From NCBI GenBank assembly GCA_964016885.1, contig OZ024756.1, positions 21,452,001-21,516,000 on the forward strand: DNA of 64,000 nt, read 5' to 3'. The notes beneath the pieces were generated by a model. It did not search any database. It saw nothing but the letters and a program-made list of their open reading frames with translations, and was not told the origin of the DNA. The position numbers and the translations under genes are program-made. Below are positions 4,621 to 49,194 of this stretch, piece by piece; position 1 is the first letter of the stretch, and every line of letters starts with the position of its first letter. The stretch is from Eledone cirrhosa (lineage: Eukaryota).

Positions 4621-4706
4621 TTATATATAACCAAAGATTAATAATACTACCAATACTGGAATTAAAACTTCAAGACAGTTGAGGTATGTCATACATCAAT
4701 TCATAT

Positions 4707-4770
4707 ATTTTATCTGATGAGGGCGTACTGAAAAAAACAGCACAGTACCTCCGAAATATATATAATAAAA
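4707..4770 (+). ncRNA. Type-I hammerhead ribozyme (family E)
   Basis: ttttat-CTGATGA(4714)-gggcgtactg...cagtacctcc-GAAA(4753)-tatata-TA-ataaaa; stems I and II pair, helix III is palindromic. Confidence 0.8.
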
Positions 4771-5094
4771 CATTTATGTTGATTATGTGAACGTATTCAT
4801 TTATTAATATTTTGATAATATATATATATATATATATAAATGTATTATGTTATATATATATTTTAGATGAGTGTATTATCTTATATATATATATATATAT
4901 GTGTGTGTATGTATTATGTTTATATATATATACACAGTTCAAGAGTAACCAATCTTAAAGAGAGAGATAGGAGAGGGGAGATTGGTGAATCAGTTAGAAG
5001 CCAAAGCGTAAAGGCATGTGCTCAATGTGCAATATGCAGTGGAAGGCAGCTAGGTGGCTGGGTTCATGCAGAGGTTAGGTGCACAGAGCTGGAA

Positions 5095-7828: not shown

Positions 7829-7978
7829 GAGGGTGTGCTAAGATACCAGGTGGGCCATAACACACCAGAGTACTCTATATTTAGGGTAGAAGAGTGGATA
7901 GTAGGAAAAGAGTCAGGACCCCGACAGCCGAGCTCCGGCCGTTTCGACAGCTAGATCCGGTCCTGACTCTTTTCCTAT
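7829..7978 (-). mobile_element. TA-flanked short element, family C (3' half of a hammerhead-like motif), with a short fold-back
   Basis: taggaaaagagtcaggacc...ggtcctgactcttttccta; homologous to 8970-9110, 13037-13250, 28228-28420 and 29786-29990. Confidence 0.75.
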
Positions 7979-8271: not shown

Positions 8272-8663
8272 GCAGAAGATGAAGTGCTTATATGTGGTTG
8301 TTACGCTGTAACTTCGTGATGATAAGCCTGTTCGAGCGATCCAAAAGCACTTCATGTCAGTAGTTTATCCCAGTTAAAATTTGGTTATTAAGAGTAACGG
8401 AATATTCATTTATCAAATTAATAGTAGTTAAGACTGGGTTATTTAATCCTAATTGCTATATTGCAATAAAGCAATTATGTTGAAATAACTTCGTTTTAAC
8501 TACTATTAATTTGATATATATATATATATGTATATATGTATGAGGTGAGTTTTATTGTAGTACAATAAAGCAATGCAGATATCGGATAAGTAGCACTCTC
8601 AAGTTTGTAGGACTGGAGTATAAATAATATATAAGATCAAAAGATGGTCAAAAGAGTTCCATG

Positions 8664-8733
8664 TATTTTATTATGCGCATTTCAAAAACAAATATCATCG
8701 TGCAATAACATTTGCGTTTTCGTCAGATAAAAC
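8664..8733 (-). ncRNA. Type-I hammerhead ribozyme (family A, CUGACGA)
   Basis: Reverse complement: ttttat-CTGACGA-aaacgcaaatgttatt...gatatttgttttt-GAAA-tgcgca-TA-ataaaa. Confidence 0.8.
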
Positions 8734-8854
8734 AGGAAGACATGATATGAAGATTAAAAAACACTTGTGGATAGTGCAGTTTTAAATCAACATATATGTT
8801 GATTTAAAACTGCACTATTCACAAGTGTGTTTTAAGCTTCATATCATGTCTCCC

Positions 8855-8925
8855 TATTTTATCTGATGAAAACGCAAATGTTATTGCATGATGATATTTG
8901 TTTTTGAAATGCGCATAATAAAATA
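8855..8925 (+). ncRNA. Type-I hammerhead ribozyme (family A)
   Basis: tattttat-CTGATGA(8863)-stem II-GAAA(8906)-tgcgca-TA-ataaaata; perfect 8-bp stem I. Confidence 0.85.
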
Positions 8926-8969
8926 CATGGAACTCTTTTAACCATCTTTTGATCTTATATATATATATA

Positions 8970-9110
8970 TGAATCAGTCTGAAACTAGCTGTTGAAGCAA
9001 GAGCTCAGCCGTCGGTGTCCTGACTCATAACAATACTCTACTACCCCAAGTATCGAGTATTCTGGTGAGTAATGGTCTAACTAGTTTCTTACTGAATCCA
9101 TCTTTATATA
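8970..9110 (+). mobile_element. Family C short element, diverged
   Basis: gagctcagccgtcggtgtcctgac...ctctactaccccaagtatcgagta; TA-flanked. Confidence 0.7.
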
Positions 9111-9147
9111 TATATATATTTATATATATATGTATGTATGTGTGTGT

Positions 9148-9268
9148 ATCCCGGGTTCAATCGGGGGTAACCACAGTAATTAAGGTACTCAATACATAGC
9201 AGAGTATAAATATATAATATAGAAATGGCTTCTACAGGGCTAGAACTGTTTCATTCGGGGGAAATCAT
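9148..9268 (-). mobile_element. Family B short element, truncated inside the hammerhead core
   Basis: cccgggttcaatcgggggtaaccacagtaa...ggcttctacagggctagaactgtttcattcgggggaaatcat then TA; homologous to 11615-11825 and 57236-57430. Confidence 0.75.
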
Positions 9269-9422
9269 ATATATATATATATATTATGTAACTTGTGGTT
9301 AGTAACGGCGACCCATGTAAACTCTCATATCTGAAAAAGTGTCGATTAAGAGACGCGATCCGATCACATGATCGATAGAGAAACAATTGTAATATGAAGT
9401 AAGGTTTACATCAAGCTGCAAT

Positions 9423-9462
9423 TCTCTCTCTCTCTCTCTTTGTCTCTCTCTCTTTCTCTCTT

Positions 9463-9495
<33 letters not shown>

Positions 9496-9502
9496 TTCTC
9501 TC

Positions 9503-9559
<57 letters not shown>

Positions 9560-10137
9560 TCTTTCTCTCTCTCTCTCCTTTCTCGCTGTCTCCTTTCTTT
9601 CTCTGTCTTTCTTCTTTCTTTCTCTGTCTCTCTTCTTTCTCTCTTCTTTCTCTCTCTGTCTCCTTTCTGTGTCTCTCTCTTTCTGTATCTCTCTGTGTGT
9701 GTGTGTCTCTCTGTCTCTCTCTCTCTCTCTCTTTCTCCCTCTCCGTGTCTCTCTTTCTCCGTGTCTCTCTTTCTCCCTCTCCGTGTCTCTTTCTGTGTCT
9801 CTCTCTTTCTCCCTCTCCATATCTCTTTCTGTTTCTCTTTCTGTGTCTCCGTGTCTCTCTCTTTATCCCTCTCCGTGTCTCTCTCTTTCTCCCTCTCCGT
9901 GTCTCTCTCTTTCTCCCTCTCCGTGTCTCTCTCTTTCTCCCTCTCCGTGTCTCTCTCTTTCTCCCTCTCCGTATCTCTCTTTCTCTCTCTGTGTCTCTCT
10001 CTGTCTCTCTTTCTCTCTCACTGTGTCTCTCTTTCTCTCTCACTGTGTCTCTCTTTCTCTCTCACTGTGTCTCTCTTTCTCTCTCACTGTGTCTCTCTTT
10101 CTCTCTCTCTGTCTCTCTGTCTCTCTCTCTCTCTCTG

Positions 10138-10206
<69 letters not shown>

Positions 10207-10336
10207 TTCTCTTTCTCTCTCTCCGTGTCTCTCTCTCCGTGTCTCTCTCTCCGTGTCTCTCTATCTGTGTGTCTCTCTCTATCTGTGTGTGTCTCTCTAT
10301 CTCTCTCTCTCTCTCTCTGACTCTGTCTTTCTCTCT
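9423..10336. repeat. (CT)n/(CTGT)n compound array with a 24-bp sub-unit ctccgtgtctctctctttctccct
   Basis: Direct inspection. Confidence 0.95.
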
Positions 10337-10782
10337 GTATGTATGATGTATGCGAATGTGTGCCCTTGCACAATCTGTGCGTAAATTACAGATCTTTCAG
10401 ATTTTCTATACACCATTTAATTTGTTTCATAAACATTCTATATTTAACGTCTTTATGTATTTTATACGGGAGCGGTGGTGGTGGTGGGGGGCCGTAAGAA
10501 GAAAAAAAGTCAATAGCAATATGAAAATGACACGTCACGCAAATACAACAAAATGTTATATTAATGATAGAAACGATTTGAGCAATTTAAATCCGTAATT
10601 TAACGTAAGAACATGTCCGTCACAAATTTCCAATGTGTACAGACATTGGTTGTTGCTCGGCGAAGAGACAAGTCTAAGTCGTGGAATATATTTACTGCAC
10701 GAAATATGTCGATTTCATCCAAAACCGCGCCAGGCTCAATGAATTTCACCAGGGAAACACATGCACACACGCACATTTTATA

Positions 10783-10821
<39 letters not shown>

Positions 10822-10852
10822 AGATCAAAAGATGGTTAAAGGAGTTCCATGT

Positions 10853-10921
10853 ATTTTATTATGCGCATTTCAAAAACAAACATCATCATGCAATAATATT
10901 TGTGTTTTCATCAGATAAAAC
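10853..10921 (-). ncRNA. Type-I hammerhead ribozyme (family A)
   Basis: Plus strand shows ttttatta-tgcgca-tttc...tcatcag(10908)-ataaaa. Confidence 0.85.
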
Positions 10922-11038
10922 AGGAGAACATGATATGAAGGCTAAAAAATACCTGTGGACAGTGCAGTTTTAAATCAACATATTTAAATCAACTGCACTG
11001 TCCACAGGTGTTTTTTAGCCTTCATATCATGTTCTCCT

Positions 11039-11107
11039 GTTTTATCTGATGAAAACACAAATATTATTGCATGATGATGTTTGTTTTTGAAATGCGCATA
11101 ATAAAAT
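11039..11107 (+). ncRNA. Type-I hammerhead ribozyme (family A)
   Basis: ttttat-CTGATGA(11046)-aaacacaaatattat...atgatgtttgttttt-GAAA(11089)-tgcgca-TA-ataaaa. Confidence 0.85.
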
Positions 11108-11234
11108 ACATGGAACTCCTTTAACCATCTTTTGATCTTATATTATGTATACTCCAGTCCTACAAACTGTAGAGTGCTTCTTATCCGATATCTGCATTGC
11201 TTTATTGTACTACAATAAAACTCACCTCCTACAT

Positions 11235-11267
<33 letters not shown>

Positions 11268-11614
11268 GAGAAAGATCTACGTCTTTCTAAATGTTTATCT
11301 ATAAACAATTATAAACATACCGTGTTTCTTTAGAAATATGAAATACATATCTGTAAACAGCTATGCTTGAAACTAAATCCTAATTCTATTATACACACAC
11401 ACAGAGGCACACACATACACACACACATACACACACACACATATAGCTATAATAAATATGAAGACCAAAATCTGAAGAGGGCTCGATAAGGATTGTATCT
11501 AAAATAAAAATGTATATATAAACCCGCATAGCAAATATTTATTATTAGTACTGCTTAAAGTTTATGCAAAGAAGCTCTCTATATATATCTACTACGATAT
11601 ATATATATATATAT

Positions 11615-11825
11615 GAAGTTTATTCCGGGGTCAATCGGAGGTAACCACAGTAAGTAACGTACTCAAGACGTAGCAGAGTATAAATATTTAATATAGAAAT
11701 GTCTTCTACAGGACTAGAAGAGTTTCATTCGGGAGAAATCATCAGGACAGTCTACTTCCTGATGATTTCTCCTGAATGAAACAGTTCTAGTCCTGTAGAA
11801 GCCATTTCTATATTAAATATATACT
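11615..11825. mobile_element. Family B fold-back element in a TA tract
   Basis: atagaaatgtcttctacaggactagaa...aaatcatcagg vs cctgatgattt...ttctagtcctgtagaagccatttctat. Confidence 0.85.
11755..11801 (+). ncRNA. Type-I hammerhead ribozyme (family B)
   Basis: cttc-CTGATGA(11759)-t-ttc-tcct-gaa-t-GAAA(11778)-cag-ttctagtc-ctg-TA-gaag; GUA cleavage triplet. Confidence 0.75.
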
Positions 11826-11960
11826 CGTGATGGTGCTGAAACGTTCCTGGCTTTGGGTAAAAAAAATATACAACAGGATCAGTTAATTATGATTTTATTC
11901 AACATATTCCCCTCTTGGATTCACAATCTTGTTGCAGTTACCCTTCAATTATTCTGTAAT
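11824..11960 (+). mobile_element. Probable mariner/Tc1 left-end remnant
   Basis: ggtgctgaaacgttcctggctttg...gattttattcaacatattcccctc resembles mariner termini I recall from octopus; not verified. Confidence 0.5.
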
Positions 11961-11997
<37 letters not shown>

Positions 11998-12106
11998 ATA
12001 ATAATAAATTTGAAGACTAAAATCCAAAGAGGGCTCGATAAGGATAAATATATATCAAATATAATATTTATTTATAAAACTGCTCTATATTATATTTTAT
12101 CTGATG

Positions 12107-12292
12107 GGCGGTGGATTGGCAGTATCAGTAGAGGGTCGGATGCCATGCTTTCCAGCATAGTTACGTCCCTTTACAATCTGAGTTCAAATCCCGCCGAGGT
12201 TGACTTTGCCTTTCATCCTTACGGGGTCGATAAAATAAAGTACCAGTAATGCACTGGGTATTTGCTGGCCTTGTGCCTAAAGTAGAAACCAT
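12107..12292 (+). mobile_element. tRNA-derived SINE family 1, full length, with 18-bp TSD
   Basis: tggcagtatcagtag (A-box-like), gagttcaaatcc (B box), gcctttcatccttacggggtcgataaaataaagtaccag central domain; attatattttatctgatg at 12089-12106 and 12291-12308. Confidence 0.9.
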
Positions 12293-12295
12293 TAT

Positions 12296-12358
12296 ATTTT
12301 ATCTGATGAAAGCACACCATAATTTAACTTGGTGTCCTTGAAATATGTATAATGAAAT
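12296..12358 (+). ncRNA. Type-I hammerhead ribozyme (family F)
   Basis: attttat-CTGATGA(12303)-aagcacacca...tggtgtcctt-GAAA(12340)-tatgta-TA-atgaaat; homologue at 49096-49153. Confidence 0.8.
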
Positions 12359-12914
12359 AAATATGGTTTTATAAATATAGTTTCCATTTGTTAATATCGT
12401 ATATATATATATATATAGGGTGGGTAAAATTCCCTCCCCTCTCTCTCTCTCAATAACAAACAAACACGTATATATATGGTGGTTACTTGATGTGTTTTCC
12501 ACTTTCTTGCATCGTTTTTATTTTTCTTCTATCCGGTATCTGGGTTAGACCATTAGATGATGGTTTATCGTTCCAAACTTAAAACTTACTAATTCTTTCA
12601 TTCTAAACGTTAAACTGATATGCTGATATTTGTAGTGTCTTAGCCCCCCCCCCCCCATATAGGTATATATATATATATATATATCAGTAATTCTCAATTA
12701 TTGATGAGTTGAAATAAAAAAATATTTATTTATTTTCTACTAAAAGAATTAGACATCATCATTTACTTGTAGGTTTCTGTTTTACTTGAAAACTTTATGG
12801 CATAATGAATTTCTGGCATAATGAACCATTTAGGAAAACACATAAACATTCTGAAACACCCACACAGATACACGTATGTATGTATGTATGTATGTATGTA
12901 TGTATGTATGTATG

Positions 12915-12946
<32 letters not shown>

Positions 12947-13015
12947 CAGAAATAACAACACAAGCGGTACAGTATATGGAAAGGATATATTAGGTTAACG
13001 CTTGATATAGCAGGA

Positions 13016-13036
<21 letters not shown>

Positions 13037-13061
<25 letters not shown>

Positions 13062-13250
13062 AGATTCAGGACCCCGACGGCTGAGCTCTGGTCGTTTCGA
13101 CAGCTAGATCTGAAATAGCTGTCGAAACGGCCGGAGCTCAGCCGTCGGTGTCCTGAATCGTTTCATATTACCCACTCTACTACCACCAAGTATCGAGTAC
13201 TCTGGTGGGTTATGGTCCACCTGGTTTTTAACGACACCCTATCTGATGTA
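13037..13250. mobile_element. Family C fold-back element in a TA tract
   Basis: gattcaggaccccgacggctgagctc..gtttcgacagcta vs tagctgtcgaaacggccggagctcagccgtcggtgtcctgaatc. Confidence 0.85.
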
Positions 13251-13420
13251 TATATATATATATATATATATATCAGATAGGGTTTGCTTCATGTATGTGT
13301 GTATATATATATATATATATGTGTATAGATACATACATAAATCAATCATCGTGTACACAGTCTATCTCACGGTCTTTTACAAAGCGCAGAGAAGATATAG
13401 TTAACTTAAAGAATGAGGTG

Positions 13421-13592
13421 TTATGAAATACAGTGAAGATACTTGAAGGGGGAAAAGAACTTTCCATTGGCCGCTATGAGGAATCGAAGCCCATAGCTTC
13501 TAGACACTGGTTAGTGTTGCGGTTAGATCCCTTATAGCGGCTGATAGCAACTTCTTTTTCCGCTTTTAAGGTTCTACACCCTATTTTGTAAG
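13421..13592. mobile_element. Old MITE-like fold-back with ~70-bp diverged arms
   Basis: ggaaaagaactttccattggccgctatgaggaatc vs gatcccttatagcggctgatagcaacttctttttcc. Confidence 0.6.
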
Positions 13593-14349
13593 CGATTTTA
13601 TAGCATCTCCGCGCATGAGCACATCATTCTTTATATTAAATATATATTAATATTAATTTTAGAGAGTGCAAATGAAACTATTCATGCATACGTCAAATAT
13701 AAGCGTCAGCTTTTTCTAGCCTATTGTTCTATTTCTACTTCTAAAATTTATGAATTTTATCGATTCAGAAACCACGAACATTAATTCGAGATATGAACAG
13801 AAATAGGACCAAACTACACGCACACGCGCATATATGTAAACAAATAAATTCAGATATACCCGGAGAAGCATTGGTATTTCATAAAATTCACAATATAATT
13901 TTGCACACATCACTAACTGATAAATAAAACAGAATCTCAGTGCATTTTCTCCTGACATTGAAGTCAGAGTAACAGTTTTACAATGAATTCTTTTTGTGAA
14001 TAAATGTCTCAAACGGTTTTCTTGGGGAATTTGTGTATATTGAATAATAGATAACAGGTTTTAAGAATAAAGCATCCAGATAAAATTTTAGATATACCTT
14101 TCTTCTACTTTTATATATTCAATATATATTTCCCTGCTTCTCAATTTAAACATCTCCCTCTCACTTGATGTGTGTGTGTCTCGTTATTCCCCTTTCTCTG
14201 TTTTATCTCTCGAAATAATTTATGCAAAGCTTGTTGTTGTTGCTCTTACAGCTCACATCTATGCAGGTCTAGCTAGCCTCCACCAAGGTATATCTCGTTG
14301 GAGGTGTCTTGGATAATTCAATGATAGGGACCCCCAGTCCTATCATCTC

Positions 14350-14708
14350 ATTTCTACAGCTGAGTAAACTGTAACAACGTGAAATAAGTATCTTGCTCAA
14401 GGAAACAACACATCACCCGGTCCGAGAATTGAACTCACAACTCACAACCTTTCAATTGCAAGCCTAATGTTCTAACCACTAAACCATGCGCCTTCACTTA
14501 TGCAAAGCTTGCAGAGCGTCGGACAACATGCTTTGCGGCATATCGTTACGTTCCTTTGTTATGAGTTCAACACGCACCGAAGTTGGCTTTGCCTTTCATC
14601 ATTATGGGGTCGATAAAATAAATCACCAGTGACGGACAGGGGGTTGATTTAATTAACTTTCTCCTCCCCTAAAATTGTTGGCCTTGTGCCTAAACTATAA
14701 ACCATTAT
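14350..14708. mobile_element. Head-to-head diverged SINEs (family 2 on minus, family 1 on plus)
   Basis: gaattgaactcac..ctaaccact on the left; gagttcaa..gcctttcatcattatggggtcgataaaa on the right. Confidence 0.7.
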
Positions 14709-14755
14709 ATTATGCTGCATCTCTCTCTCCCTCACTTGAAATAATAAGGAAAAAG

Positions 14756-14792
14756 TTTTAACATTTCGGACACTAGTCCATCATCAGAAGAT
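14756..14792 (-). ncRNA. Minimal hammerhead (family H), diverged
   Basis: Reverse complement: tctt-CTGATGA-t-ggac-tagt-gtcc-GAAA-tg-TT-aaaa; homologue of 22921-22956. Confidence 0.6.
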
Positions 14793-14871
14793 AGCGAGAA
14801 ATAAAACCTAGAGTAAGAAGGAACGTAAATAATGAGAACAAACACATGCGTGTTCTATTAGCCTATGTTGA

Positions 14872-14914
<43 letters not shown>

Positions 14915-15363
14915 GGTCTTCCACAAACAACCTTGCCTGGACTTGTGCCTTGGAGGAAAACTTTCTAGGTGCAAATCCCCTGCGACTTCACAGAACTTAT
15001 GTTTACCGAATTCGCAGACCCCTTCTTCCTCCCGTTAGACCTGTGCGAAATTCCTTCCTTGCTCACATTTCAACCAGCTTTGATGGTCTTTAGTCTCTCG
15101 TTCACGATTTCACCGAGTTTATATTCATAGAAATCTAGGACTTGTCTCTTTCTTCTCACTTTCTGTTGCTTAAACCATTTTGTTTGTTCACCCCAGCGTC
15201 CCCTTTATTTACGTGTCCCAACGACTTTTTTTAGCCGTTGTTCGCACCAACCTGAGGTATATGGCCTTTAAAGTGATGAAATGCCTAGGACGGTTGGAAG
15301 GCCACTGACGAAGGACTTACTTTTTCATATGTAACCCATTTGCAACGCCGCAGCTCCATTATT

Positions 15364-15404
<41 letters not shown>

Positions 15405-15586
15405 TAAACTTTGATGTAATTGAATTCGAGAACTCAACATATATTTTTCCACATAGTAATGACAGGATATGTTTAGAATAAGGAAATACAAAGTAGGCAT
15501 TCGCTTCATGAACATCGTGTTTTGTAAGGTCCTTAGTCACTTCAATTTCGGATTACCTCCTTGAATGTAACCGTATTATGCAAAAA

Positions 15587-15661
15587 GGTGTCTGATGAGA
15601 TCCTGGCACTGGGTACTACGCAGAATCACGTGGCCACTCTCGTCATCGAAATATGTACACC
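15587..15661 (+). ncRNA. Degenerate hammerhead candidate
   Basis: ggtgt-CTGATGA-gat...atc-GAAA-tatgt-acacc; stems I and II close, but the cleavage-site register is off by one. Confidence 0.4.
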
Positions 15662-15865
15662 GGCCTTATCAATAAAGGACTTTAACATCTAAACTACTCT
15701 GTAATTCCTTATTCTCTCTCTCTCTCGGTCTCTCTGTCTCTCTGTCTGTCTCTCTCTGTCTCTCTGTCTGTCTCTCTCTCTCTCTGTCTCTGTCTTTCTG
15801 TCTCTGTCTCTTTCTGTCTCTCTGTCTGTCTCTCTGTCTGTGGTATCTCTCTCTCTCTCTCTCTC

Positions 15866-15973
15866 AACCGTATTTCCCTGCGTCGAAGACGCTTCTCTTT
15901 TCCTAAAATAAGTTAAAAAATCTACCATGCATCCTGGAGGACGAATCGTTGTTCGGCGCCGGGAAATACGGTA
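15866..15973. repeat. Short fold-back between (CT)n and (TA)n
   Basis: accgtatttccctgcgtcgaa ... ttcggcgccgggaaatacggt. Confidence 0.65.
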
Positions 15974-17171
15974 TATATATATATATATATATATATATTC
16001 TCTTACACTGATATTATATGTATTGAAATACGACTAAATAAATGTCATAGTTGACCTGAGCGGAGAGATACAAAATAGATATACTGATGCATTTTATTCG
16101 AGGAACTAAATACTGCCAATTCACTCCTTTATATCATATTGAATTATTTAATCTACGCAGTGCACTAATCTCACTCTGAGCCCACATGGAGCGTTACGTT
16201 CGCTTGTCACTGAAACAGAATATTATTGTTGTGCAAATTAGCAAAACAGGAATAACAATAGTAATAATAATAATAATAATAATAATATATATGGAAGAAC
16301 AGAAAATAAAAGATGGCCATACATCTAATCAATTGTTCTTTTAGAATGTGTTTTTGAAGAAATGCAGTTTCTATAAGATGCCTGCAGGCACCAAGCAATG
16401 TGAGAAGCTGGCGCCACTTCTATCAGTTCTGTGATAGAATATTTGAAGCGTTGAGCTTAAAAAAAAAAAAAAATTTGGAAATGCGGTATGGAGTAAAAAC
16501 GAAAACAATGAAAACATCGCACTGTGTGTATGTGTATGTGTATGCATAGAATGAAATTCACACTAACGCACATGCACATATACGCTCGCATACACACACA
16601 TACACACTCACATATATGCACACATACACACACGCATACACACATATATACACATACGCACTCACACTCACATGCACACACACACACACACCCACACACG
16701 CAAATGCACACTCATACACACACACGCGCATACACACACACGCATACACACACACGCATACGCACACACGCATACACACACACGCATACACACACACACA
16801 TACACACACACGCATACACACTCACTCATTCATACGCACTCACTCATTCATACGCACTCACTCATTCATACTCACTCACTCATTCATACTCACTCACTCA
16901 CACACGCACACACACGCGCACACGCACACATGCACACACGCACACGCACACATGCACACGCACACATGCACACGCACACATGCACACGTACACACACACA
17001 CACACTCTCTCTCTCACCCTATAAATGAATATGTATGAATGTGAGAGAGGGAGGAGATGGTGATAAACACATAGATATATTGAGAGTGCGAAACAGAATG
17101 TGGGAAAGAGAGAAACACACATGGAGGCACATATCAGTGTGCGAGTGTCTTTCTCTGTGTGTGTGTGTGTG

Positions 17172-17217
<46 letters not shown>

Positions 17218-17584
17218 ACTATTTCCACATATTCATACATACATGTATTTTTATGTAATAAAATCGATAGAAAATGTATTGAGGTAGAAACTATTTTTTT
17301 TATTTTTTCGAATCTACAGAGTATAGGACATGTATATATATGTGTATATATACATATATATGTGTATATATACATATATATGTACATATATATATATATA
17401 TATATACATATATATTGTGTGTACATATTGCTATATATGTGTTTGTGTTTGCAATTCTATATATAGTGTATACACATATATTTATATTTGTGTGTTCATA
17501 TGTTTGTGTTTGCATTTCTATATAGTGTATGTATGTATATATATATATTATATATATATATATATACAAATGTTTTGTGTGTGC

Positions 17585-17621
<37 letters not shown>

Positions 17622-17635
17622 TATATAAACATTTT

Positions 17636-17671
<36 letters not shown>

Positions 17672-17818
17672 CATACATACATATATAAATGTTTTGTGTG
17701 TGTGTATATATAAATATATTTACATATACATACATATATGATTAAAAATTGCGGTTAACTTAAACATTGAGAACATTTGATATTTGAAACTATTGAAGTC
17801 AACGCCCAGAACTTCTAG

Positions 17819-18540
17819 CATACCTTCCGTTAACCCATCGCCACGCATACCTTCCGTTAACCCATCGCCACTCATACCTTCCATTAACCCATCGCCACTC
17901 ATACCTTCCGTTAACCCATCGCCACTCATACCTTCCGTTAACCCATCGCCACTCATACCTTCCGTTAACCCATCGCCACTCATACCTTCCGTTAACCCAT
18001 CGCCACTCATACCTTCCGTTAACCCATCGCCACTCATACCTTCCATTAACCCATCGCCACTCATACCTTCCGTTAACCCATCGCCACTCATACCTTCCGT
18101 TAACCCATCGCCACGCATACCTTCCGTTAACCCATCGCCACTCATACCTTCCATTAACCCATCGCCACTCATACCTTCCGTTAACCCATCGCCACTCATA
18201 CCTTCCGTTAACCCATCGCCACTCATACCTTCCGTTAACCCATCGCCACTCATACCTTCCGTTAACCCATCGCCACTCATACCTTCCGTTAACCCATCGC
18301 CACTCATACCTTCCATTAACCCATCGCCACTCATACCTTCCGTTAACCCATCGCCACTCATACCTTCCGTTAACCCATCGCCACTCATACCTTCCGTTAA
18401 CCCATCGCCACTCATACCTTCCGTTAACCCATCGCCACTCATACCTTCCGTTAACCCATCGCCACTCATACCTTCCGTTAACCCATCGCCACTCATACCT
18501 TCCGTTAACCCATCGCCACTCATACCTTCCATTAACCATC
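17819..18540. repeat. 27-bp minisatellite (cataccttccgttaacccatcgccact), ~26.7 copies
   Basis: Near-perfect units with two recurring variants. Confidence 0.97.
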
Positions 18541-21041
18541 TATGATATACAATTGTTGTTTTCTGGCAACCTATTGCATTCTTTAACTTGAAAAATGTCT
18601 TGAGTACTTAGCACTAGATGCCAGGCAGCCGACTTTGGTCTGATAGCTCAGTCAAAGAGACGAGATGCAGAATGACGTTTCACACGAAACGTGCCCATAG
18701 TCTTCGTCATTGAGTAACGTGAGCTAATACTGTAGATGTGTTGGCAGACAATTGGTATTAATGTTTCTCACAAGTATGGAAATACACTCTTGACAGGTGC
18801 AACGTGCCCGAACGCGCAAGAGCCGAACTCGCACCGTCATCTCCCCATCACTCTGTATAGTGAGCAAATAGGGTCCCACGTGCTGGTCGTCCCACAGCTC
18901 CGGCGGACAGAATGGAGAAGGCGTTTCCCAGGACGATGCTAAGGGAGATGAGCTGAAACAGCCATTGTGTCTGTCACCGCATCATTAACGATAGTGTCTG
19001 CAGATCAGGGTGGAGAGGATGTTTGTAGTAGTAGTAGTTGGCCTTTCCAGAAAAAAACTGGAAGAACATGCATTCAAGTCGGGTATGGTACTACACATTC
19101 AGCTGGTAGTTTACAACTGAAGCGATGTAGGTCCTTGCCATCTCCGCCCAACATTTGAGGGATAGCTTTCTCTCCGCCGATTAAAAAATGAAATTGGTTA
19201 TTTTGTTCTCTGCCCACGTCTAGTTTTTACCTATTTGGAGATTTGATCCAAACCAGTCTAACTCTGCTGTCTAGATAGCGAGGTGCGGCCCACTGACTTA
19301 TCTCGGTTAATGCACTATCCTATTAGTATTCTTCCGGTATTAAGTTGACTGCTTCTATATCTGACGTGTCAGATACCATGACTCAGTCAACGGCATACAT
19401 AGACACGGCTCTCCTTCGACAAGAAACTATTTTATTTACGTCACATGATATAGATGGAGACACATTTGATGGACGGGTTACAAAACTGCGCTGTTTTATA
19501 TTGACATCTGACAAATAAAATAGAGAAAACAATAGAAAATAATGTACATAGTATACAGATATGTGTTAGAGACTCCTTACATTAGAATTGCCACCTATGG
19601 TCAATATAGGAATCCCAAAGATGCAATGTTACTCTGATAGCAGAGGCTGTGCCTTTCTCATCTACCATCCCCCGGTCTACAAGCACATGCTGAGAAAAGC
19701 TACATTCATAGGGCTCTAATCACTATCATTACACACTTTTTGCTTCATTTCCTAAAGGGAAGTATCTCCCTTTTCATCTTCCTTTTCCTCTACAATGGAA
19801 CATGGAATTGTCAATGAGAGTTTGGTAAAAAGAGGAAGGGGTTTGTTTTCAGTCCTTCCAGTCCGCAATACAACCGGCTCTCCATAGCCAGCAGAGAGAT
19901 GTAAACCGCCTGCTCCTCTCGGCCAGAGGAATTCGGTGGGATGATCTGACCGAGCGATCTTACCGTGTGGTTCTACATGACTGACCACACTCTTCTGTAC
20001 CTGTATATTTTATCTTAAATCAATAATTTCTCCTCCACCTTCCATTAGCACTTCCAGAAATTTCTGGAAGTTCACCAAAATCCTCTGGTGGAGATCAACA
20101 AGTTTATTCTTGTCGACATTTAATTTGTTCCCGAAAACATTACCGATCTTCTGCATCACTAACGCCTCTATAGTATTTTAACTTAAAAATTTTATTGGAT
20201 GCCTTGACCAACCCCTACAGAAATATGATCGTCTTATATTATAGACGCCATGTTGGATTTTCACTTGAATCAAGATTGTTAAAGATACAAAGTGTGGAGG
20301 AAAAAAAATCGAGTCCGAAAAACGATGATCACACTTTCTCTTTTAAAAGTCTCGGGGTATTTAAGTCTGCGAATCATGAGCCCCGCGAAAATTAGTACGT
20401 TTCCTAAACGCCCCGCCAGGTAACTAGGGTGAAGGATCATTCAAATATTTCAAGGTCGTTTATTGCTAAACTGAACTCCACATAATTATTTTCCCAACTA
20501 GATAACATACGAGAAAATAACTTCTTCCCTGAAATGTGATATTATAATTGCAGACCTGACAACCTCGAAAAACCCAAGCGGGGTATACCATGAAAAAAAA
20601 AGGGCCCCATTCACACAAAAATACACACATTATGTGATGGACATGATGATGATGATGATGGTGATGGCGATGACGACGGCGTCGATGACGACGGCGACGA
20701 CGAGATTAAACTAGAAAAGGATGTTTAAAATATTTTAAAGCATTACATGAAACAATTGCAAATGAAACAAAAAATAAAAAAAAAATAAAAAAAACATACC
20801 AAACAAAACAAAATGCAATGAAACACATTGATCAATATAAATTGAAATACAGTTAAAACCATAACAACAACGGCAACATCAATAACAACAACGGCAGCAT
20901 CAATAACAACATGAACTACGCATTATTTGGTACCGTAGAAAATCAATGATTTAGAGGTAATATTAATTAACCCTAGCATTTTGATCTGCTGTCAAATGGA
21001 TAATTTTAAACATGGAGTAATATAATAATAATAATAATAAT

Positions 21042-21615
21042 AATTGTTTCTACTTTTGGCCCAAGGCCAGCAATTATTCTAGTACATTACTGGTACTTTA
21101 TTTTATCGACCCCGTAAGGATGAATGGCAAAGTGAACCTCGGCGGGATTTAAACTCAGACCGTAAAGGGACGTAACTATGCTGCAAAGCATGGCGTCCGA
21201 CCTTCTACCGATACTGCCAAAATAGCCTTAATAACAGTCAAAAGTGATAGCAACAACAACAATAGAAATGGCAGCAGGAACAGCAGCAACAACAGTAGCA
21301 ACAACAAATATAACTGAAGCTGCAGTAGTAGTAGCAGCAGCAGCCGTAAGTGCACAAACAAGAACAACAACATCAGCAAAACAACGACGTTGACAACTAC
21401 GACACCGGTGGCAACAAACTCAACATTATTTGGTGGATTGGCAGTATCGGTAGAGGGTCGGACGCCATGCTTTCCAGCATAGTTACGTCCCTTTACGATC
21501 TGAGTTCAAATCCCTTCGAGGTTAACTTTGCCTTTCATCCTTACGGGGTCGATAAAATAAAGTACCAGTAATGAACTGGATAATTGCTGGCCTTGTGCCT
21601 AAAGTAGAAACAATT
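21042..21615. mobile_element. Two family 1 SINEs in opposite orientation (21042-21220 minus; 21432-21615 plus)
   Basis: Both carry the B box and the gcctttcatccttacggggtcgataaaa domain. Confidence 0.88.
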
Positions 21616-22422
21616 ATTAACAATAACAAGAACGACAACTCTAACATCAGCAACAACATTAATAACAAGATCAACTCTAACGACAACAACAATACTAACA
21701 ATAACAACAGCAACAACAATATTAACAATAACGAGACCTAACAACAGCAATATTACCAATAATAACACTAACACTAACAATAACGAGAACACTAACGACA
21801 ACAACAACAGCAATATTAACACTAACGACAACAGCAACAATATTAACACTAACGACGACATTTTTAACAATAAGAATGACAACAACAACAGCAACAATAG
21901 TAACACTATCGACGACATTTTTAACAATAAGAACAACAACTATAACAGCAGCAATATTACCAACACTAACGACAACAACAACATTAATAATAAGAACGAC
22001 AACTCTAACAACAACAGAAACAATATTAACAATAACAACAAGTAGAATATGAGAGAGAAAAATAAAAGACGTCGAAAGTAATATTGTGTCTGGATTGACT
22101 TGCAATGCTTCATTTCACGGCAGCCATTACAACAGCCTAAAATGACTTCCGTTGTGCTGGTTGTATATATTTGTGAGTGTTTATTGTTACTGTTGTTGTT
22201 GTTACTGTTGTTGTTGTTATAGCTTGTGATGTTTCTTATTGCCTAGCATATGCATGTTGTTTTTGTTTAGTGCGTTAGATAGAGTGCCTTGTAGTGTTCG
22301 TTTCGGCACTCTGCGCTTTCTGAGTTCAAATACTGCCGAGGACAACTTTGCCGTTTATCCTTTCGAGGTCAATAAAAAAAATAGTACCTGTCTAGTACTG
22401 GGTCGATTCTCCCTCATCTCTC

Positions 22423-22471
<49 letters not shown>

Positions 22472-22616
22472 ACATATATATATACATATATATATCTATA
22501 TATACATACACACACACACATACACACACACATACACACATACATACATACATACATACATACATACATACATACATACATACATACATACATACATACA
22601 TACATACATACATACA

Positions 22617-22647
<31 letters not shown>

Positions 22648-22920
22648 GAGGCTGTATTGAGATACAAGGTTTCTAGCTTTTTTTTTTAAAACGTGGTGGA
22701 GCCCATCTCTCTAGGTCTATATATATATATATCAGGGCCATTATCTCTCAATTTCTATCTTTCTCCGGAAGAAATCTGCTGTATTTAGACCTGGAGAGAG
22801 GAGCTTCTACAATGTAGTATAATTTACGTTATATATATATATATATATAAAGGTCAACAAAGATAACCACACAATCGGTACAGTATATGGTAGGGATAGC
22901 TTGAAATAGCTGGAAGAGGG

Positions 22921-22956
22921 TCTTAACGTTTCGGACGCTAGTCCTTCATCAGAGGA
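22921..22956 (-). ncRNA. Minimal Penelope-type hammerhead (family H)
   Basis: Reverse complement: CTGATGA-a-ggac-tagc-gtcc-GAAACGT-T-aaga with ACGT palindrome; element tail cggtacagtatatgg also at ~12965. Confidence 0.7.
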
Positions 22957-24050
22957 AAGAAAACATTGAAGGGACTAGTTTGGTGGAATTGGAAAAATGT
23001 TTTTAAAGAAAAATAACAGGTCCATTCATGTTGCTATTTCTTGAAAAATTATATTGTTATATTTTGGGAGGGCCATACTGCCAATAAAAACACGCGCACA
23101 TGTTGGCATTTACTTCAATTTATTACAAATTTCTACTCATTTGGTTGCGTTTGTTTTTATTGGCAGCTTGGCTCTCCCAAAGTATAACAATATGTTTCAA
23201 TACTCGCATTCAGATAAGAAATACAAAAACGAAGTCTATATATACATGCACACACAGACTACAGCCGACGCTCTGGCAATCATACATGCACATACGCGCT
23301 TTTATGTATGCATGTATGTGTGTACCTATGTATGCTTGTATGTATGTATATAGGCTTAGATTTGTCTATGTATATATGCATACATGTATGCATGTATTTA
23401 TTCACATGCGTACTTATATAAGTAAGTATGTGCATACTTATTTATGTATGTATGTGCGTATTTATTTATGTATGTATGTATGTATGTAACATGGTGCGCC
23501 CATTATTTATGTTTTTCTTCAAAATCTCTTTATTTTTCATCCCCCTATAAATATAGAAGAGTAACTGTTTAATTTTTATATATTTATCGATACGTTCAGG
23601 CATTTTATCTTCTATTTAAGGTTATCTTTTCATTTTATTTTATTAGCATTTTACACACACGCGCATACACTCACACACACACACTCTCTCTCCGGCTCTC
23701 TCTCTCCATCTCTCTCCATCTCTCTCCATCTCTCTCCATCAAAATGGAAAAGTTCCATCTCTGATCTGATTAGGGTTTACTATAGGAAATAGTTTACATA
23801 TATACATATATATATATATAATTTTCTTTTGCTGGCGGGGTGCAGTTAAATTCAGTTAAGGTTTATTTAAAAGAAATAAACTCTTATATCATATACAGCC
23901 CCAGCATAACCATACAAATACATTGACTAGAATAGGTAATATTGTAAAAAAAGTATTGGAAATAATTCTCAATGATAATAATAATATAAGAAACGTAACA
24001 TTTCCAATTTATTTTTTTTGAAAATCTTACACAGAGTGAATAATAAATAA

Positions 24051-24082
<32 letters not shown>

Positions 24083-24278
24083 CTAAACTGGCCGCCTTTC
24101 TATGACAGTTCTAACTCTACTTTATAATACCTGATGATCGCTAGTCTTCCATTATATATATATATATATATATACACACGCACACACCGATAGATATCTG
24201 CGCACACACACATATGCACTTGCAGGCACACATACATACTGATGCACACATACATACTGATGCACACACACATACACG

Positions 24279-24317
<39 letters not shown>

Positions 24318-24703
24318 TAATAACAGCTAGCACAAAATATAGTTTTCTGATATTTGACTACATTACCAAACTTCCGATCAGGTCGGAAATAACACTAGAA
24401 AGATTCCTTATATATAAACTTCAAATAGATCGATGAATGAATACACACATGTATATGCATACATATATACACACAGCTATATACACTATATATACACACA
24501 GATATATATTCACACACACATATATATATATATATACACACACAGATATCTGTACACACCCAGATATACATTCACACACATATGCACATATATTCACAAA
24601 TATATATGCATATATATGTATAGTTATATGCAAATATATATATTTAAACACACACACACATATATATATATATATACACATATACATACAGAAACATATA
24701 CGC

Positions 24704-24734
<31 letters not shown>

Positions 24735-25595
24735 TACAGAGACATATACGCATATATATATATATATACACATATACATACAGAGACATATACGCATATA
24801 TATATATACACATATACATACATAAACATATACGCATATATATATACATATATATATACACATATACATACATAGACATATACGCATATATATATATATA
24901 TATATATATACATACATATATATATACACATATACATACAGAGACATATACGCACACACATATATATATATATATACATACAGACATATACGCACATATA
25001 TATATTTACACATATATATATATATACATGTATACAACGATATATACACAGATGTATACACCCATGTATACACGCATGTATACATACATATTTACTTGTA
25101 TTTCGTTATGTTACATGTAGTTTCCACCTGCTCCTCCTCGTGGTTCTAATTTGCCATCCGGTTGACCAACTTAGTTCTCTCCCTTTCTATCTTTCTCTCT
25201 CCCTCTGTCCCCCATCTGTTATAATTAGTTACAATATACAAATATACAAATACTTAAGTCTCGTTGGGTTATACACCGCAACTCATTCAGTTTGTTATAT
25301 AAGGAGGAGTTACCTCGTCCTATGGACTAAAGTGCTCTTACTCTTGGATATTTCTCCCAAACTGATACTGCAGTATGTATATATATATATATATTAGAAA
25401 GTGAGGTTTTTTTACAAAATGAAAAATAACCGAGGTGTCCTACACGAGTGAAAGTATAAAGAAAAACAGATGAAATCGAAAATGCAACTGGAGTCTTATT
25501 TTTAAAAATATCTATATATTTATTTGGTTCCTTTACCGGTTTCGCAGTTCTTCTGCTTTTCAAAAGTAGAGTTGAGATGGAGGGTCTGTGGTTTT

Positions 25596-25649
<54 letters not shown>

Positions 25650-25685
25650 CAAGGTCGATTGGTTAAGTCTTCATTTCTTTTATTG

Positions 25686-25772
25686 GTTGCTGACGCGCGT
25701 TTCGCTATTGAACAGCTCAAGGTTCGATTGTATCGACCTGGCCCGACTCTGGAATCAAAAGCTCGTCAGACC
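25686..25772 (-). ncRNA. Type-I hammerhead (family D) in a TA-flanked inverted element at ~25650-25860
   Basis: Reverse complement: ggt-CTGACGA-gcttttga...tcaatagc-GAAA-cgcgcg-TC; GUC triplet; 3' half repeated at 57488-57512 with acc complementary to ggt. Confidence 0.7.
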
Positions 25773-26554
25773 TCTGTTGTAGAAACGATACTGAGGTGAA
25801 CCTAAACATCGAGTACTCACCTGGGTGAACCTACAGTAACTTCGCGTTACAATCCCTCGATATATATATATATATACACCCATGCATCGTATTCTAGAAA
25901 CTCTATTTGGTGCATGTACCATGTAATCCCAAAATAACTGTCTAACGATTGGGTATCTGTAACTAAACCATACTCCCTTCACTAAAACTGATTGACCTAT
26001 GGGTTTCCACCATGAAAACTTAAAATCATATCAAACGGCGGAAAGGATTTCAAAATAACTCAACAGCAAAACATACTTGGAGAGAAAGGCATCACTGGGT
26101 TTTGTGCCTAATAAAAATAAAATAACAAAACACACATGGACTCACACTCACTCACTCACACTCCCTCGCACTCACTCACTCGCACTCACACTCACTCACT
26201 CACACTCACTCACTCACGCACTTACTCACTCACGCTCGCTCGCTCTCACCCACCCACCCACGCACGCACGCACGCACGCACGCACGCACTCACTCACCCA
26301 CTCACTCACTCACTCACTCACTCACTCACTCACTCACTCACTCACTCACTCACTCACTCACTCACTCACTCACTCACTCACTCGCACCCACTCCCACCTC
26401 TCACTCACTCGCACCCACTCCCACATCTCACTCTCACTCCGACTCTCTCACTCACTGATTCGGTGAGTTATGAGAAGTCAAAAGAATACTTCATTTACCG
26501 CTGTTTTTCTGTATCTCAAAGAAGAGTTGATGAATACACTAAAGAAGCAAAGAA

Positions 26555-27900
26555 AATGTCAAAACTATCCTACAATTCTTTTATATTTGGAACTTGGAAT
26601 ATACTTTATCAATTTGGAAAAATAAAAGAGCAAACCAATGATGGAGAGTTATTCTTAGAATATGATATGAATTGCTAAAACAAGATGGAAAAAAATGGAG
26701 AATTTATCACAATTAATGGGCATAAAATATGGTTTAGCAGGGAGTCAAGCAAACATGAAAAGGGAGCAGACTTCATGGAGCATAAAAGTACCATAAACAA
26801 TCTGTAATATATTGCCCAATGAATTCCAGCAGAGCATGCAGAATAACACTGGCATCTGAGCTCTAAAATGTCTTAAGCATCCAAATTTAAGCTGAAAATA
26901 GCGATTACAGAGACGCGGAGAAATTCTATGAGGATATAGAAAAACCAACAGGCGAACAAAACGAAAAGGGGGGAAAAAAGCAAAAACGAAACGAAAAAAA
27001 AAAAAAATTCAAGGTGAATTGAATGCAAATATTTGATCAGATGCGTATGACACATGGAAAGGAAGTTAGTAAATATGGCTCGGAAAATAATAGAAACTAC
27101 CAGCAGGAGAGGAATATTATTAGAATTTCCAAAACAACATCAACTAATTATAGCAAATACATTGCATCAGCACAAACTGTGAAGAACAGTATCACAGTAT
27201 TGCCCCAGAGGGATCTATAATAACCGGATCGATTTTAATCTCTTCCTAAATCGATTATAAATGGAGCTCAAATTCAAGTCTTTTCTTGTTGCAGATATAT
27301 GCAACGATCACGAACTTTTAATGATGACAATAAAAATTAAGCTCAAATCAGTGAAGAACGAAGGTGCAAAAATAAATTATAATACTAAAAAAATCTTATA
27401 GACCCGACCGTAATAGTAGAATTTAAAGCAGAGATAAGAAAATTTGCACAGTTATTATTAAATGCAAATATCCAAAGATGATCAGAAGCCTATCAGGGCG
27501 GTGGATTGGCAGTATCGGTAGAGGGTCGGACGCCATGCTTTGCAGCACAGTTACGTCCCTTTACGGACTGAGTTCAAATCCCGCCGAGGTTAATTTTGCC
27601 TTTCATCCTTACGGGGTCGATAAAATAAAGTACCAGTAATACACTTGGATAATTGCTGGCCTTGTGCCAAAAGTAGAAACAATTAGCAGAAGCCTTTGAA
27701 GAAATAACAACAATAAGAACATGAACAACAATAACAATTCTTGATGAATTAAAGAAAATTAAGAATGCTTGGATAAAGAAAATAAATGTTTTAATCAGAT
27801 GTGATGTAAAACAGAAACGGTATCAAAGAAGAGTGGAATATAAATTGGTCTACTAATGAAAATGAGAGCAGCGAAAGATGCATACATTGACAAACAAGAA
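26555..27900 (+). pseudogene. Decayed RTE-type LINE apurinic endonuclease region, interrupted by a SINE
   Basis: Remnants IFGTWNI, RWKKNGEFITINGHKIWFS, IDF, ADI.NDHELLMMTIKIKLK with many stops and frameshifts. Confidence 0.75.
27496..27684 (+). mobile_element. Family 1 SINE, near consensus
   Basis: gggcggtggattggcagtatcggtagagggtcggacgcc...gagttcaaatccc...gtagaaacaatt. Confidence 0.92.
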
Positions 27901-28192
27901 AGGCGAAGGATTAGAAAGCAGTCAGAAAAGAAAAAGAAATACGCAGCGAAGTTTTCGAGAACTAACTTAAGATGTTGAAGATTAGTATAGTATCATTCAT
28001 ACTTTATTCTTCTTTTACAAGGATCAGTCTTGCGGCCATATTTGGAGGGGATACAGTTCAATATACCGACTCCTGCAGATTAAATATGTAAACAGTACAT
28101 GTGTTTAATCTGGTAATATTTGAAACACAAAGAGGACATCGGTGCAAGGTTAGATACACCTGTTGGATATTAATAACACAGTAGTTTTCTTT

Positions 28193-28227
<35 letters not shown>

Positions 28228-28228
<1 letters not shown>

Positions 28229-28420
28229 GAAAAAGTATGACCCCGACGGCAGAGCTCAAGCCGTATCGACGGCTATTTCCGTCCAGAAATAGCCGTCGAA
28301 ACAGCTTGAGCTCTGACGTCGGGGGCATACTTTTTCCTATTTCCCACTCTACTACGCTAAGTATTGAGAACTCTGGTGCGTTATGGCCCATCTGGTTCCT
28401 TACCACAATTCCTTTGTTAT
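28228..28420. mobile_element. Family C fold-back element in a TA tract
   Basis: aaaagtatgaccccgacggcagagctcaagccg..cgacggctatttc vs gaaatagccgtcgaaacagcttgagctctgacgtcgggggcatactttt. Confidence 0.85.
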
Positions 28421-28431
28421 ATATATATATA

Positions 28432-28650
28432 TAATGTAGGAGGTGAGTTTTATTGTAGTACAATAAAGCAATGCAGATATCGGATATGTTGATTTAAAAC
28501 TGCACTATCCACAAGTGTTTTTTAGCCTTCATATCATGTTCTCCTGTTTTATCTGATGAAAACACAAATATTATTGCATGATGATGTTTGTTTTTGAAAT
28601 GCGCATAATAAAATACATGGAACTCCTTTAACCATCTTTTGATCTTATAT
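28432..28650. mobile_element. Family A element with inverted 3' tail and internal deletion
   Basis: 28432-28485 is the reverse complement of the family A tail (compare ~11185-11236); 28486-28650 is the forward hammerhead part. Confidence 0.88.
28546..28614 (+). ncRNA. Type-I hammerhead ribozyme (family A)
   Basis: ttttat-CTGATGA(28553)...GAAA(28596)-tgcgca-TA-ataaaa. Confidence 0.85.
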
Positions 28651-28916
28651 TATATATATATATATATATTAGGGCTACTATAACGATTTCAGACACGTAG
28701 ATCAGTTGAGAAAAAAAGCATCAATCGTTTGTTTTTGTTTTGAACCGTTTCTGCTTCACATTTGAAATTATTTGAATTATATTGGGTAAACCATTACTTT
28801 CTTTTGTCATATTTATTATACTTTGCCCCTTATATATTTTTACTGCATTGTACCGGCCCTTTGAAAAAACTATCAGTCATTTATTACATATCACATAATG
28901 CTTCGTATTTACTTTA

Positions 28917-29745: not shown

Positions 29746-29785
29746 CATACAGGAAAATGTTCAGGTACGAAATATATATATATAT

Positions 29786-29989
29786 AACGAAGGAAATGTG
29801 GTAAGGAACCAGGTGGACCATAACGCACCAAAGTACTCAATACTTAGGGTAGTAGAGTGGGTAATAGGAACCAGTAAGACCCCGACGACTGAGCTCAAGC
29901 CGTTTCGACGGCTAATTCTGGACTAAATTTTAGTCCAGAATTAGCCGACGAAACGGCTTGAGCTCAGCCGTCGGGGTCTTACTGGTTCC

Positions 29990-29990
<1 letters not shown>
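29786..29990. mobile_element. Family C fold-back element in a TA tract
   Basis: aggaaccagtaagaccccgacg..tgagctcaagccgtttcg vs cgaaacggcttgagctcagccgtcggggtcttactggttcct. Confidence 0.88.
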
Positions 29991-30031
<41 letters not shown>

Positions 30032-32035: not shown

Positions 32036-32059
32036 AAAGGTAATAATTACCTAGACATA

Positions 32060-34580
<2,521 letters not shown>

Positions 34581-41289: not shown

Positions 41290-41883
41290 TGAAAGGCGAA
41301 GCTAACCTCGGGTGGTTTGAACTCAGATCGTAAAGGGCTGTAATTCTATGCTGTAAACCATGTTGTCCGACGCTCTACCAATACTGCCAATCCTAATAAT
41401 AATAATTGTTTCTACTTTTAGCACAAAGGCCAGCAATTACTCCAGTTCATTACTGGTACTTTATTTTATCGACTCCGTAAGGATGAAAGCAAAGCTTACC
41501 TCGGTGGGATTTGAAATCAAAAACGTAAAGGGTTGTAAAATCATAATAATAATTGTTTCTACTTTTGGCACAAGGCCAGCAATTACGCCAGTTCGTTACT
41601 GGTACTTTATTTTATCGACTCCGTAAGGATTAAGGCAAAGCTTACCTCGGTGGGATTTGAAATCAAAAACGTAAAGGGTTGTAAAATCATAATAATTAAT
41701 TGTTTCTACTTTTAGCACAAAGGCCAGCAATTACCTAGTGTATCACTGGTACTTTATTTTATCGACCCCGTAAGGATGAAAGGCAAAGTTAACCTCGGCG
41801 GGATTTGAAATCAGAATGGCAAAGGGCAGTAACTCTATGCGTCAAAGTATGTTGTCCGACCCTCTACCGATACTGCCAATCCA
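41290..41883 (-). mobile_element. Head-to-tail cluster of ~4 family 1 SINE copies, two of them a local duplication
   Basis: aattgtttctacttt at ~41403, 41551, 41698; shared variant cttacctcggtgggatttgaaatcaaaaacgtaaagggttgtaaaatc twice. Confidence 0.85.
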
Positions 41884-48997: not shown

Positions 48998-49095
48998 ATG
49001 GTGAACTAACTGTTGTAGAACTATATATATATATATATATATGTATATATAAACGATATTAATAAATGGAAAATACCATTTATAATACCGTATTT

Positions 49096-49153
49096 ATTTT
49101 ATTATACGTATTTCAAGGACACAAAGATTTTGTGTGATTTCATCAGATAAAAT
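49096..49153 (-). ncRNA. Type-I hammerhead ribozyme (family F)
   Basis: Reverse complement: attttat-CTGATGA-aatcacacaaa-atc-tttgtgtcctt-GAAA-tacgta-TA-ataaaat. Confidence 0.82.
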
Positions 49154-49194
49154 ATAATATTTGGTGTTCAGATTTTGACATACCTTAGCATAGT

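Follow-up and report, generated by a model that had tools for sequence, protein, structure and literature searches.

Two fixed end sites in head-to-head copies of a Penelope-like element from Eledone cirrhosa suggest double priming at broken (TA)n tracts

A 64,000-nt stretch of the Eledone cirrhosa genome (assembly GCA_964016885.1, contig OZ024756.1, positions 21,452,001-21,516,000 of the forward strand; hereafter the window) holds three copies of a repeat, Family A, each flanked by TA and each consisting of two arms that, read from the sequence, are joined head to head. How does a mobile element come to be inserted as two inverted arms with different ends? Family A is the 3' end of a Penelope-like element (PLE) of the Hydra clade, and we consider it probable that, when a (TA)n tract is cut, one RNA is primed from both of the resulting 3' ends, at a proximal, internal site (P) and at a distal site (D), and that the two complementary DNAs (cDNAs) are then joined head to head. 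Positions in the element are given on the parent unit, with the natural copy L061:1615-5347 as ruler (u1-3733); on this unit P lies at u3642-3645, D at u3733, and Family A spans u3476-3733.

Each window copy has one P-ended and one D-ended arm, and in this the sequence bears out the preliminary description, which had placed the three copies and their end types here. Copy 1 pairs a long D-ended arm (8536..8795, minus strand; u3476-3733, 92% to L061), whose end is the common D site with one substitution, with a short P-ended arm (8794..8960, plus strand; u3476-3642); the two arms overlap by 2 nt at a perfectly palindromic centre and differ by 8 point changes in 151 nt, and the copy lies between a (TA)n run at 8513..8540 and a right flank at about 8961-8970. 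Copy 2 joins a short P-ended arm (10814..10983, minus; 97% to L061, reaching the shared 5' end, hammerhead core at 10914) through a centre at 10984..10993, a short templated repeat of the P arm's own end with a 3-nt overlap into the D arm, to a long D-ended arm (10991..11236, plus; about u3490-3733, hammerhead core at 11046) that closes with a tail of about 90 nt (about 11146-11236); its (TA)n flanks lie at 10779..10816 and 11235-11267. Both copies had been called full palindromes: palindromic they are, but asymmetric, as only one arm of each carries the ~90-nt tail. The hammerhead-bearing arms had been thought to reach a single 5' point, which holds for four of the five in the window; the long arm of copy 2 begins 14 nt short of it, after a templated repeat of 7-10 nt. 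Copy 3, described as an inversion with a deletion of about 40 nt, is an inversion with non-overlapping arms, but the template missing between them measures about 35 nt (u3646-3680). Its D-ended arm (28432..28486, minus; u3681-3733) is tail only, its P-ended arm (28484..28653, plus; u3476-3645) is preceded by G where the parent has C, the (TA)n run on its left (28418..28433) is the end of a copy of a second repeat, Family B, and its right flank lies at about 28651-28670.

A motif scan found a type I hammerhead in all five window arms that span its position, including 8663..8734 (minus, core variant CUGACGA) and 8855..8926 (plus) in the long and short arms of copy 1 and 28545..28616 (plus) in copy 3, the last with an 8-bp stem I, a stem II, a palindromic stem III and a predicted cut after 28607. 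Rfam returned no match at its gathering score, and the hammerhead monomer folded no better than shuffles (z -0.09). Related type I hammerheads occur in other TA-flanked window fragments (4706-4772, 12295-12360 and, on the minus strand, 49086-49156); these keep the core, have a palindromic or near-palindromic stem III with different letters, and probably belong to sister Hydra families.

Genome-wide searches placed these copies within a larger element. A hammerhead 30-mer has 14,563 exact matches in the 3.0-Gb host genome versus none for its reversed control, and many matches are paired at 1-5 kb spacing; the sequence enclosed by such arms held frames of 821 and 808 codons. The parent unit is 3.73 kb long, and Family A is its 3' end, a pseudo-long terminal repeat (pLTR) with a hammerhead. 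Family A had been taken for a short element in its own right; many insertions carry kilobases of the parent, and it is not a stand-alone repeat but the 3' end of an autonomous Hydra-clade PLE. Partial tandem structure, as is usual in PLEs, is present in 195 of 11,893 tail matches, where the sequence continues into the start of the frame, and tandem arrangements occur at L063, L065 and L208. The last of these (G000:C1:54092239-54101878) measures 8.6 kb and joins two full tandem units head to head, with one P end and one D end. Subfamilies L061-L065 have at least two types of 3' untranslated region, with internal duplications and a 111-nt tandem repeat (L063:1348-1907).

In an alignment with nine homologues the 821-codon frame shows reverse transcriptase (RT) motifs (FDI, YRDD) and a C-terminal IY..YFG region, and protein P0001 carries HSDKT, CNCRIKNKC (CxCX5C), CNLC (CxxC) and CLH (CxH), all conserved across the alignment. 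The Hydra clade is described by DKT in place of DKG, a CxCX5C linker, CxxC and CxH around conserved E and N, RWK, and (TA)n insertion (PMC8557442). Among 25 protein homologues (31-42% identity), the sole named one is a mis-annotated Argonauta protein, and 14 carry PF26215. Pfam assigned no family to P0001 or P0002, and a PDB sequence search gave one spurious match (E 0.084), so the call of a PLE-type RT and C-terminal GIY-YIG endonuclease rests on the motifs and the homologues; by eye we saw no CCHH motif in the parent protein. About 75 residues before CxCX5C the parent protein has an Asn-rich insert that resembles the N-rich inserts reported in PMC3846280. Word shares of the parent coding region were 0.61-0.67 in sequencing runs of three organisms and 0.23-0.36 in two more, which may reflect related hosts or transfer.

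We then took a census of the insertions behind the first 100 hammerhead and first 100 tail matches on contig C1, together with those of the window; it covers one stretch of one contig, picked by exact motifs. Where an element 3' end is followed by (TA)5, it lies at P or D in 203 of 206 cases; the two sites are about 90 nt apart. The sharp 3' peaks foreseen in the preliminary description are therefore present, but only about half of the arms stop at one 5' end. Among 89 two-armed insertions, 86 are D+P, three D+D and none P+P, and in 87 a microsatellite run flanks both sides. To avoid selection bias we split the insertions by the motif that had selected them and compared each subset with the 2:1 ratio expected of free choice. 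The D-selected subset contains 68 D+P and 2 D+D insertions (p = 3e-10), and the P-selected subset (n = 53) contains 41 D+P, 3 P+P and 9 single or unclear cases (p = 3e-5).

The two arms of an insertion also resemble each other far more than arms of different insertions. Across 50 pairs sharing u3490-3640 we counted 0.56 mismatches at 23 diagnostic columns, versus 7.85 for shuffled pairs, and P and D arms have equal allele frequencies, with no separate left and right lineages. Where both arms reach u3476 (n = 42), both stop there in 20 pairs, both run on in 21, and a single pair is mixed. Arm lengths range from 25 to 3,733 nt, with P arms of up to 3.7 kb opposite D arms of 37-1,400 nt, and the centres at which arms meet differ from copy to copy. 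In 83 pairs the P arm extends further 5' than the D arm in 49, is level with it in 18 and is nested in it in 16; 17 pairs, window copy 3 included, have no overlap at all. A D arm running upstream of +1 beside a short P arm was never seen, against 15 pairs of the reverse kind, an asymmetry expected if P leads on one RNA. The earlier proposal of two fixed priming sites, one per broken end, on one template with head-to-head joining is thus supported by the end, pairing and haplotype tests, and priming of one RNA by both target strands is favoured by the pairing, haplotype, arm-reach and class data.

What directs priming to these two sites? TA microhomology had been proposed as the guide. None of 65 classifiable P junctions lacks TA pairing, which spans 3-7 nt (18 more could not be classified), and among 100 classifiable D junctions 97 show 2 nt, two join CA runs and one has none (10 unclassifiable); a uniform null would leave 12/28 of junctions at P and 6/16 at D without pairing. 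Twelve other alternating TA runs of at least 5 nt in the unit are almost unused as ends and D offers only 2 nt, so TA pairing does not choose the sites. It agrees with the register of priming, most clearly at P, and the choice of sites has another basis.

At the other end of the arms, the preliminary description had posited a common 5' end and a short RNA. Genome-wide, the 22-mer at u3476 occurs in 11,147 arms; 4,610 of them continue upstream into the parent element and about 6,500 end at the site, so the common end applies to about half. The site sits in a context that we take to be initiator (Inr)-like. In 2,111 arms a G stands at -1 where the parent has C, and a copied cap yields such an extra G in other retro-copies. 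At 30 loci with the -1 G it meets many different partner positions (census share 18/57), and some of these residues can derive from the partner arm. Sixteen frame-bearing arms extend across the upstream copy of the u3476 site and not one stops at it, versus 50 of 101 at the terminal copy (p = 6e-5); the 5' ends of the 16 scatter up to 1.4 kb upstream without a second fixed start. Because arms pass the same sequence upstream, the 5' stop is probably an RNA end and not a pause. From these patterns there are probably two template classes, a short RNA starting at u3476, for which the support is indirect, and long tandem or circular RNAs. For hammerhead-cut RNA as a template no enrichment was shown: a few 5' ends lie at u3599-3605, where 126 genome matches include about a quarter that by eye are 3-nt deletions, and an out-of-register control pattern gave 395 matches, mostly point changes, with about 27 true joints by eye among the first 100.

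Combining these observations, we propose the following model. The element's own protein would cut both strands of a (TA)n tract, and one broken end would prime at P and the other at D on one RNA; the sites would be selected by protein or RNA structure, and TA pairing over 2-7 nt would fix the register. Where the arms overlap, a trailing D-primed enzyme would displace the P-primed cDNA. Short copies would derive from a capped RNA with its start within the pLTR, at u3476, and long copies from tandem (or circular) RNAs, and the centre would be closed by microhomology end joining, leaving the two cDNAs head to head.

Several points weigh against this model. The arms overlap in 66 of 83 pairs, so that one RNA must have been copied twice over the same stretch and strand displacement is required. 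Classical L1 twin priming shows no strand displacement, and PLE RTs are not known to have RNase H. D arms show only a slight excess of stops at the P site (7/60 in 28 nt). The three D+D and three P+P insertions need two templates or reuse of a site. One-armed insertions exist as well, since many of 44 termini without an assigned partner abut TA directly; by eye, three of the 44 have tiny partners (L083, L116, L170) and L208 is a long D+P insertion. Two RNAs transcribed from a single source locus would share haplotype and class as well, and conversion of one arm by the other after insertion could have the same effect. At D, 92 of 100 junctions fit one fixed start without any pairing, and PAc, a PLE of the Poseidon clade, starts without homology to its target (PMC11167929). 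Chosen by exact motifs, the census leans to young copies. Searches for empty alleles found none: contigs of four sequencing runs at copy 3 neither spanned nor skipped the copy, and a flank search over 79 insertions returned only spurious matches from neighbouring repeats.

Among the alternatives, the one that survives best holds that two RNAs of the same source sit on an asymmetric protein dimer, perhaps paired via the palindromic hammerhead stem III, one primed at P and one at D, much as dual priming has been proposed for L1 (PMC2837659). It requires no displacement for overlapping arms and accommodates D+D and P+P copies, and two hammerhead copies do pair through stem III in a co-fold. We nevertheless think it unlikely: an extra rule is needed to force the D+P combination, just one of 42 pairs combines a short-class with a long-class arm although both classes are common, and the 0 versus 15 asymmetry in upstream extension speaks for a single RNA.

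Fold-back or self-priming, in which one cDNA (or an antisense template) copies itself, the second arm joins at the TA-like P motif and later deletions blur the pattern, is the published explanation of head-to-head PLE palindromes (PMC3846280). It accounts for haplotype sharing, the D+P asymmetry and perfect palindromic centres, and agrees with the pairs in which P is nested in D or level with it. In the other 49 of 83 pairs, however, each arm has private sequence; the D arm always holds the tail, so neither can have been copied from its partner, and fold-back is excluded there unless one assumes deletions at a later time. The 17 pairs without overlap and the P arms of up to 3.7 kb that face far shorter D arms stand against it too, and as a general account we regard it as very improbable. 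A DNA transposon (a miniature inverted-repeat transposable element, MITE) with a fixed palindromic body and a TA target duplication would explain inverted arms, high copy number and TA flanks, but we give it next to no weight: the RT-endonuclease parent together with the variable centres and arm lengths refutes it, and the shared haplotypes and equal P and D allele frequencies, which leave no left and right lineages, remove it too. We attach equally negligible weight to a library or assembly fold-back artefact, since, although palindromes are a known artefact and we saw no raw reads running across any of the window copies, point differences separate the arms, which have two distinct fixed end sites and in some pairs no overlap, and in contigs from a different run the inverted centre turns up as loose ends at 28483-28484.

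Family B, an unrelated short family, offers a second instance of the same architecture. Its window copies (7830-7975, 8971-9106, 13058-13248, 28229-28417 and 29785-29992) are TA-flanked, with short and long arms head to head; the repeat is about 140 nt long and has 29,308 exact 28-mer matches in the genome. In a tail-selected sample of 49 loci, close pairs comprise 36 D+P and one D+D, and those 49 loci revealed no long coding parent; a canonical hammerhead was not found in Family B. Several further Hydra-like PLE families have frames that adjoin Family B copies (L307, L312, L325, L327, L331, L333), as do other PLE-like RT/GIY-YIG frames (L324, L329), and nested insertion of PLE families and Family B into one another's TA runs is common.

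A broader proposal, which in our judgement has an even chance of being right, is that programmed twin priming is the default mode of PLE insertion: one ribonucleoprotein (RNP) would use one RNA at two fixed sites, the trailing enzyme would displace the leading cDNA, the cDNA 3' ends would pair to close the gap, a capped short pLTR RNA would give rise to thousands of mini-copies, and Family B would follow the same route. If true, a single mechanism would account for the tail, the inverted pLTR and second-strand synthesis.

The window contains further repeats. A SINE-like repeat (SINE, short interspersed element), present in dozens of window copies, is inserted at 12085-12310 in one of the related hammerheads with a duplication of about 19 nt, and in L100 Family A is likewise interrupted at its P motif by such insertions. 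Tandem arrays (76/152, 27, 146 and 135 nt) occupy 1-401, 17819-18537, 41396-41813 and 44717-45122, and two (TA)n tracts, 2.5 and 3.4 kb long, lie at 32057-34577 and 49794-53247.

How does Family A compare with known systems? It resembles Hydra-clade PLEs in its single frame for RT and C-terminal endonuclease, DKT, CxCX5C, CxxC, CxH, hammerhead and (TA)n sites (PMC8557442), and its Hydra assignment follows these published motif descriptions. It differs in a hammerhead sequence distinct from that of Hydra-1_Obim, a parent of 3.73 kb where the clade is usually below 3 kb, a tail of about 90 nt where 30-40 are published, and RWT or RWI (P0001 and P0002, respectively) in place of the clade's RWK, at a column where most homologues have RWK or RWR (clade features from PMC8557442). 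The pattern had been thought undescribed, but an inverted copy, a one-sided tail, two RT start sites and (TA)n targeting are all in print. An inverted, 5'-truncated copy with a one-sided tail is published (PMC8557442, PMC3846280), Penelope-13_HM being listed with a 5'-truncated inverted copy (PMC8557442), and four Hydra-1_Obim copies end at one site (PMC8557442 supplement). A literature search that was thin on subscription papers, older Penelope work included, found no one-site-per-end or twin-priming account of PLE inverted arms.

PAc, from Anolis, nicks and extends both strands in vitro, has two internal starts and is predicted to form a dimer (PMC11167929). As in Family A, two internal RT start sites bound its tail and its targets are AT-rich, and hammerhead cleavage is not needed (PMC11167929). 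It uses no target homology, whereas both Family A sites are TA-like, with 3-7 nt of pairing at P, and serve one end each; in the part available, the PAc paper neither assigns one site per end nor explains inverted arms (PMC11167929). Non-LTR retrozymes are likewise short, hammerhead-bearing, non-coding derivatives of PLE pLTRs, but form head-to-tail tandem arrays where Family A is dispersed and head to head (10.64898/2026.07.22.740005); we found no short head-to-tail hammerhead arrays of this type among the loci examined. The inverted pLTRs of Adineta vaga Penelope elements share palindromic junctions, an optional one-sided tail, solo pLTRs and an Inr-like start, and were explained by self-priming on an antisense template, which the non-nested arms of Family A do not fit (PMC3846280). 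In L1 twin or dual priming, too, both target strands prime, and an inversion with a deletion at the joint is formed as in copy 3, yet there it is a minority variant with poly(A) as first site and a variable second one (PMC2837659), whereas in Family A both sites are fixed and internal and double priming is probably the usual outcome. Family A appears to work like twin priming without showing the L1-type pattern of non-overlapping arms with a deletion, since only 17 of 83 pairs have separate arms.

The origin of inverted and tandem PLE structures has been named an open question (PMC8557442), and the in vitro study of PAc leaves the steps after initiation unvalidated (PMC11167929). Repeats of this type are easily mislabelled as MITEs. 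Family A supplies thousands of natural products, a near-obligate rule of one site per end, and non-nested arms, which together speak against self-priming as proposed in print. Taken by itself, the element is unremarkable, a new family within a known clade; what is new is the genomic evidence for double priming as its usual mode of insertion.

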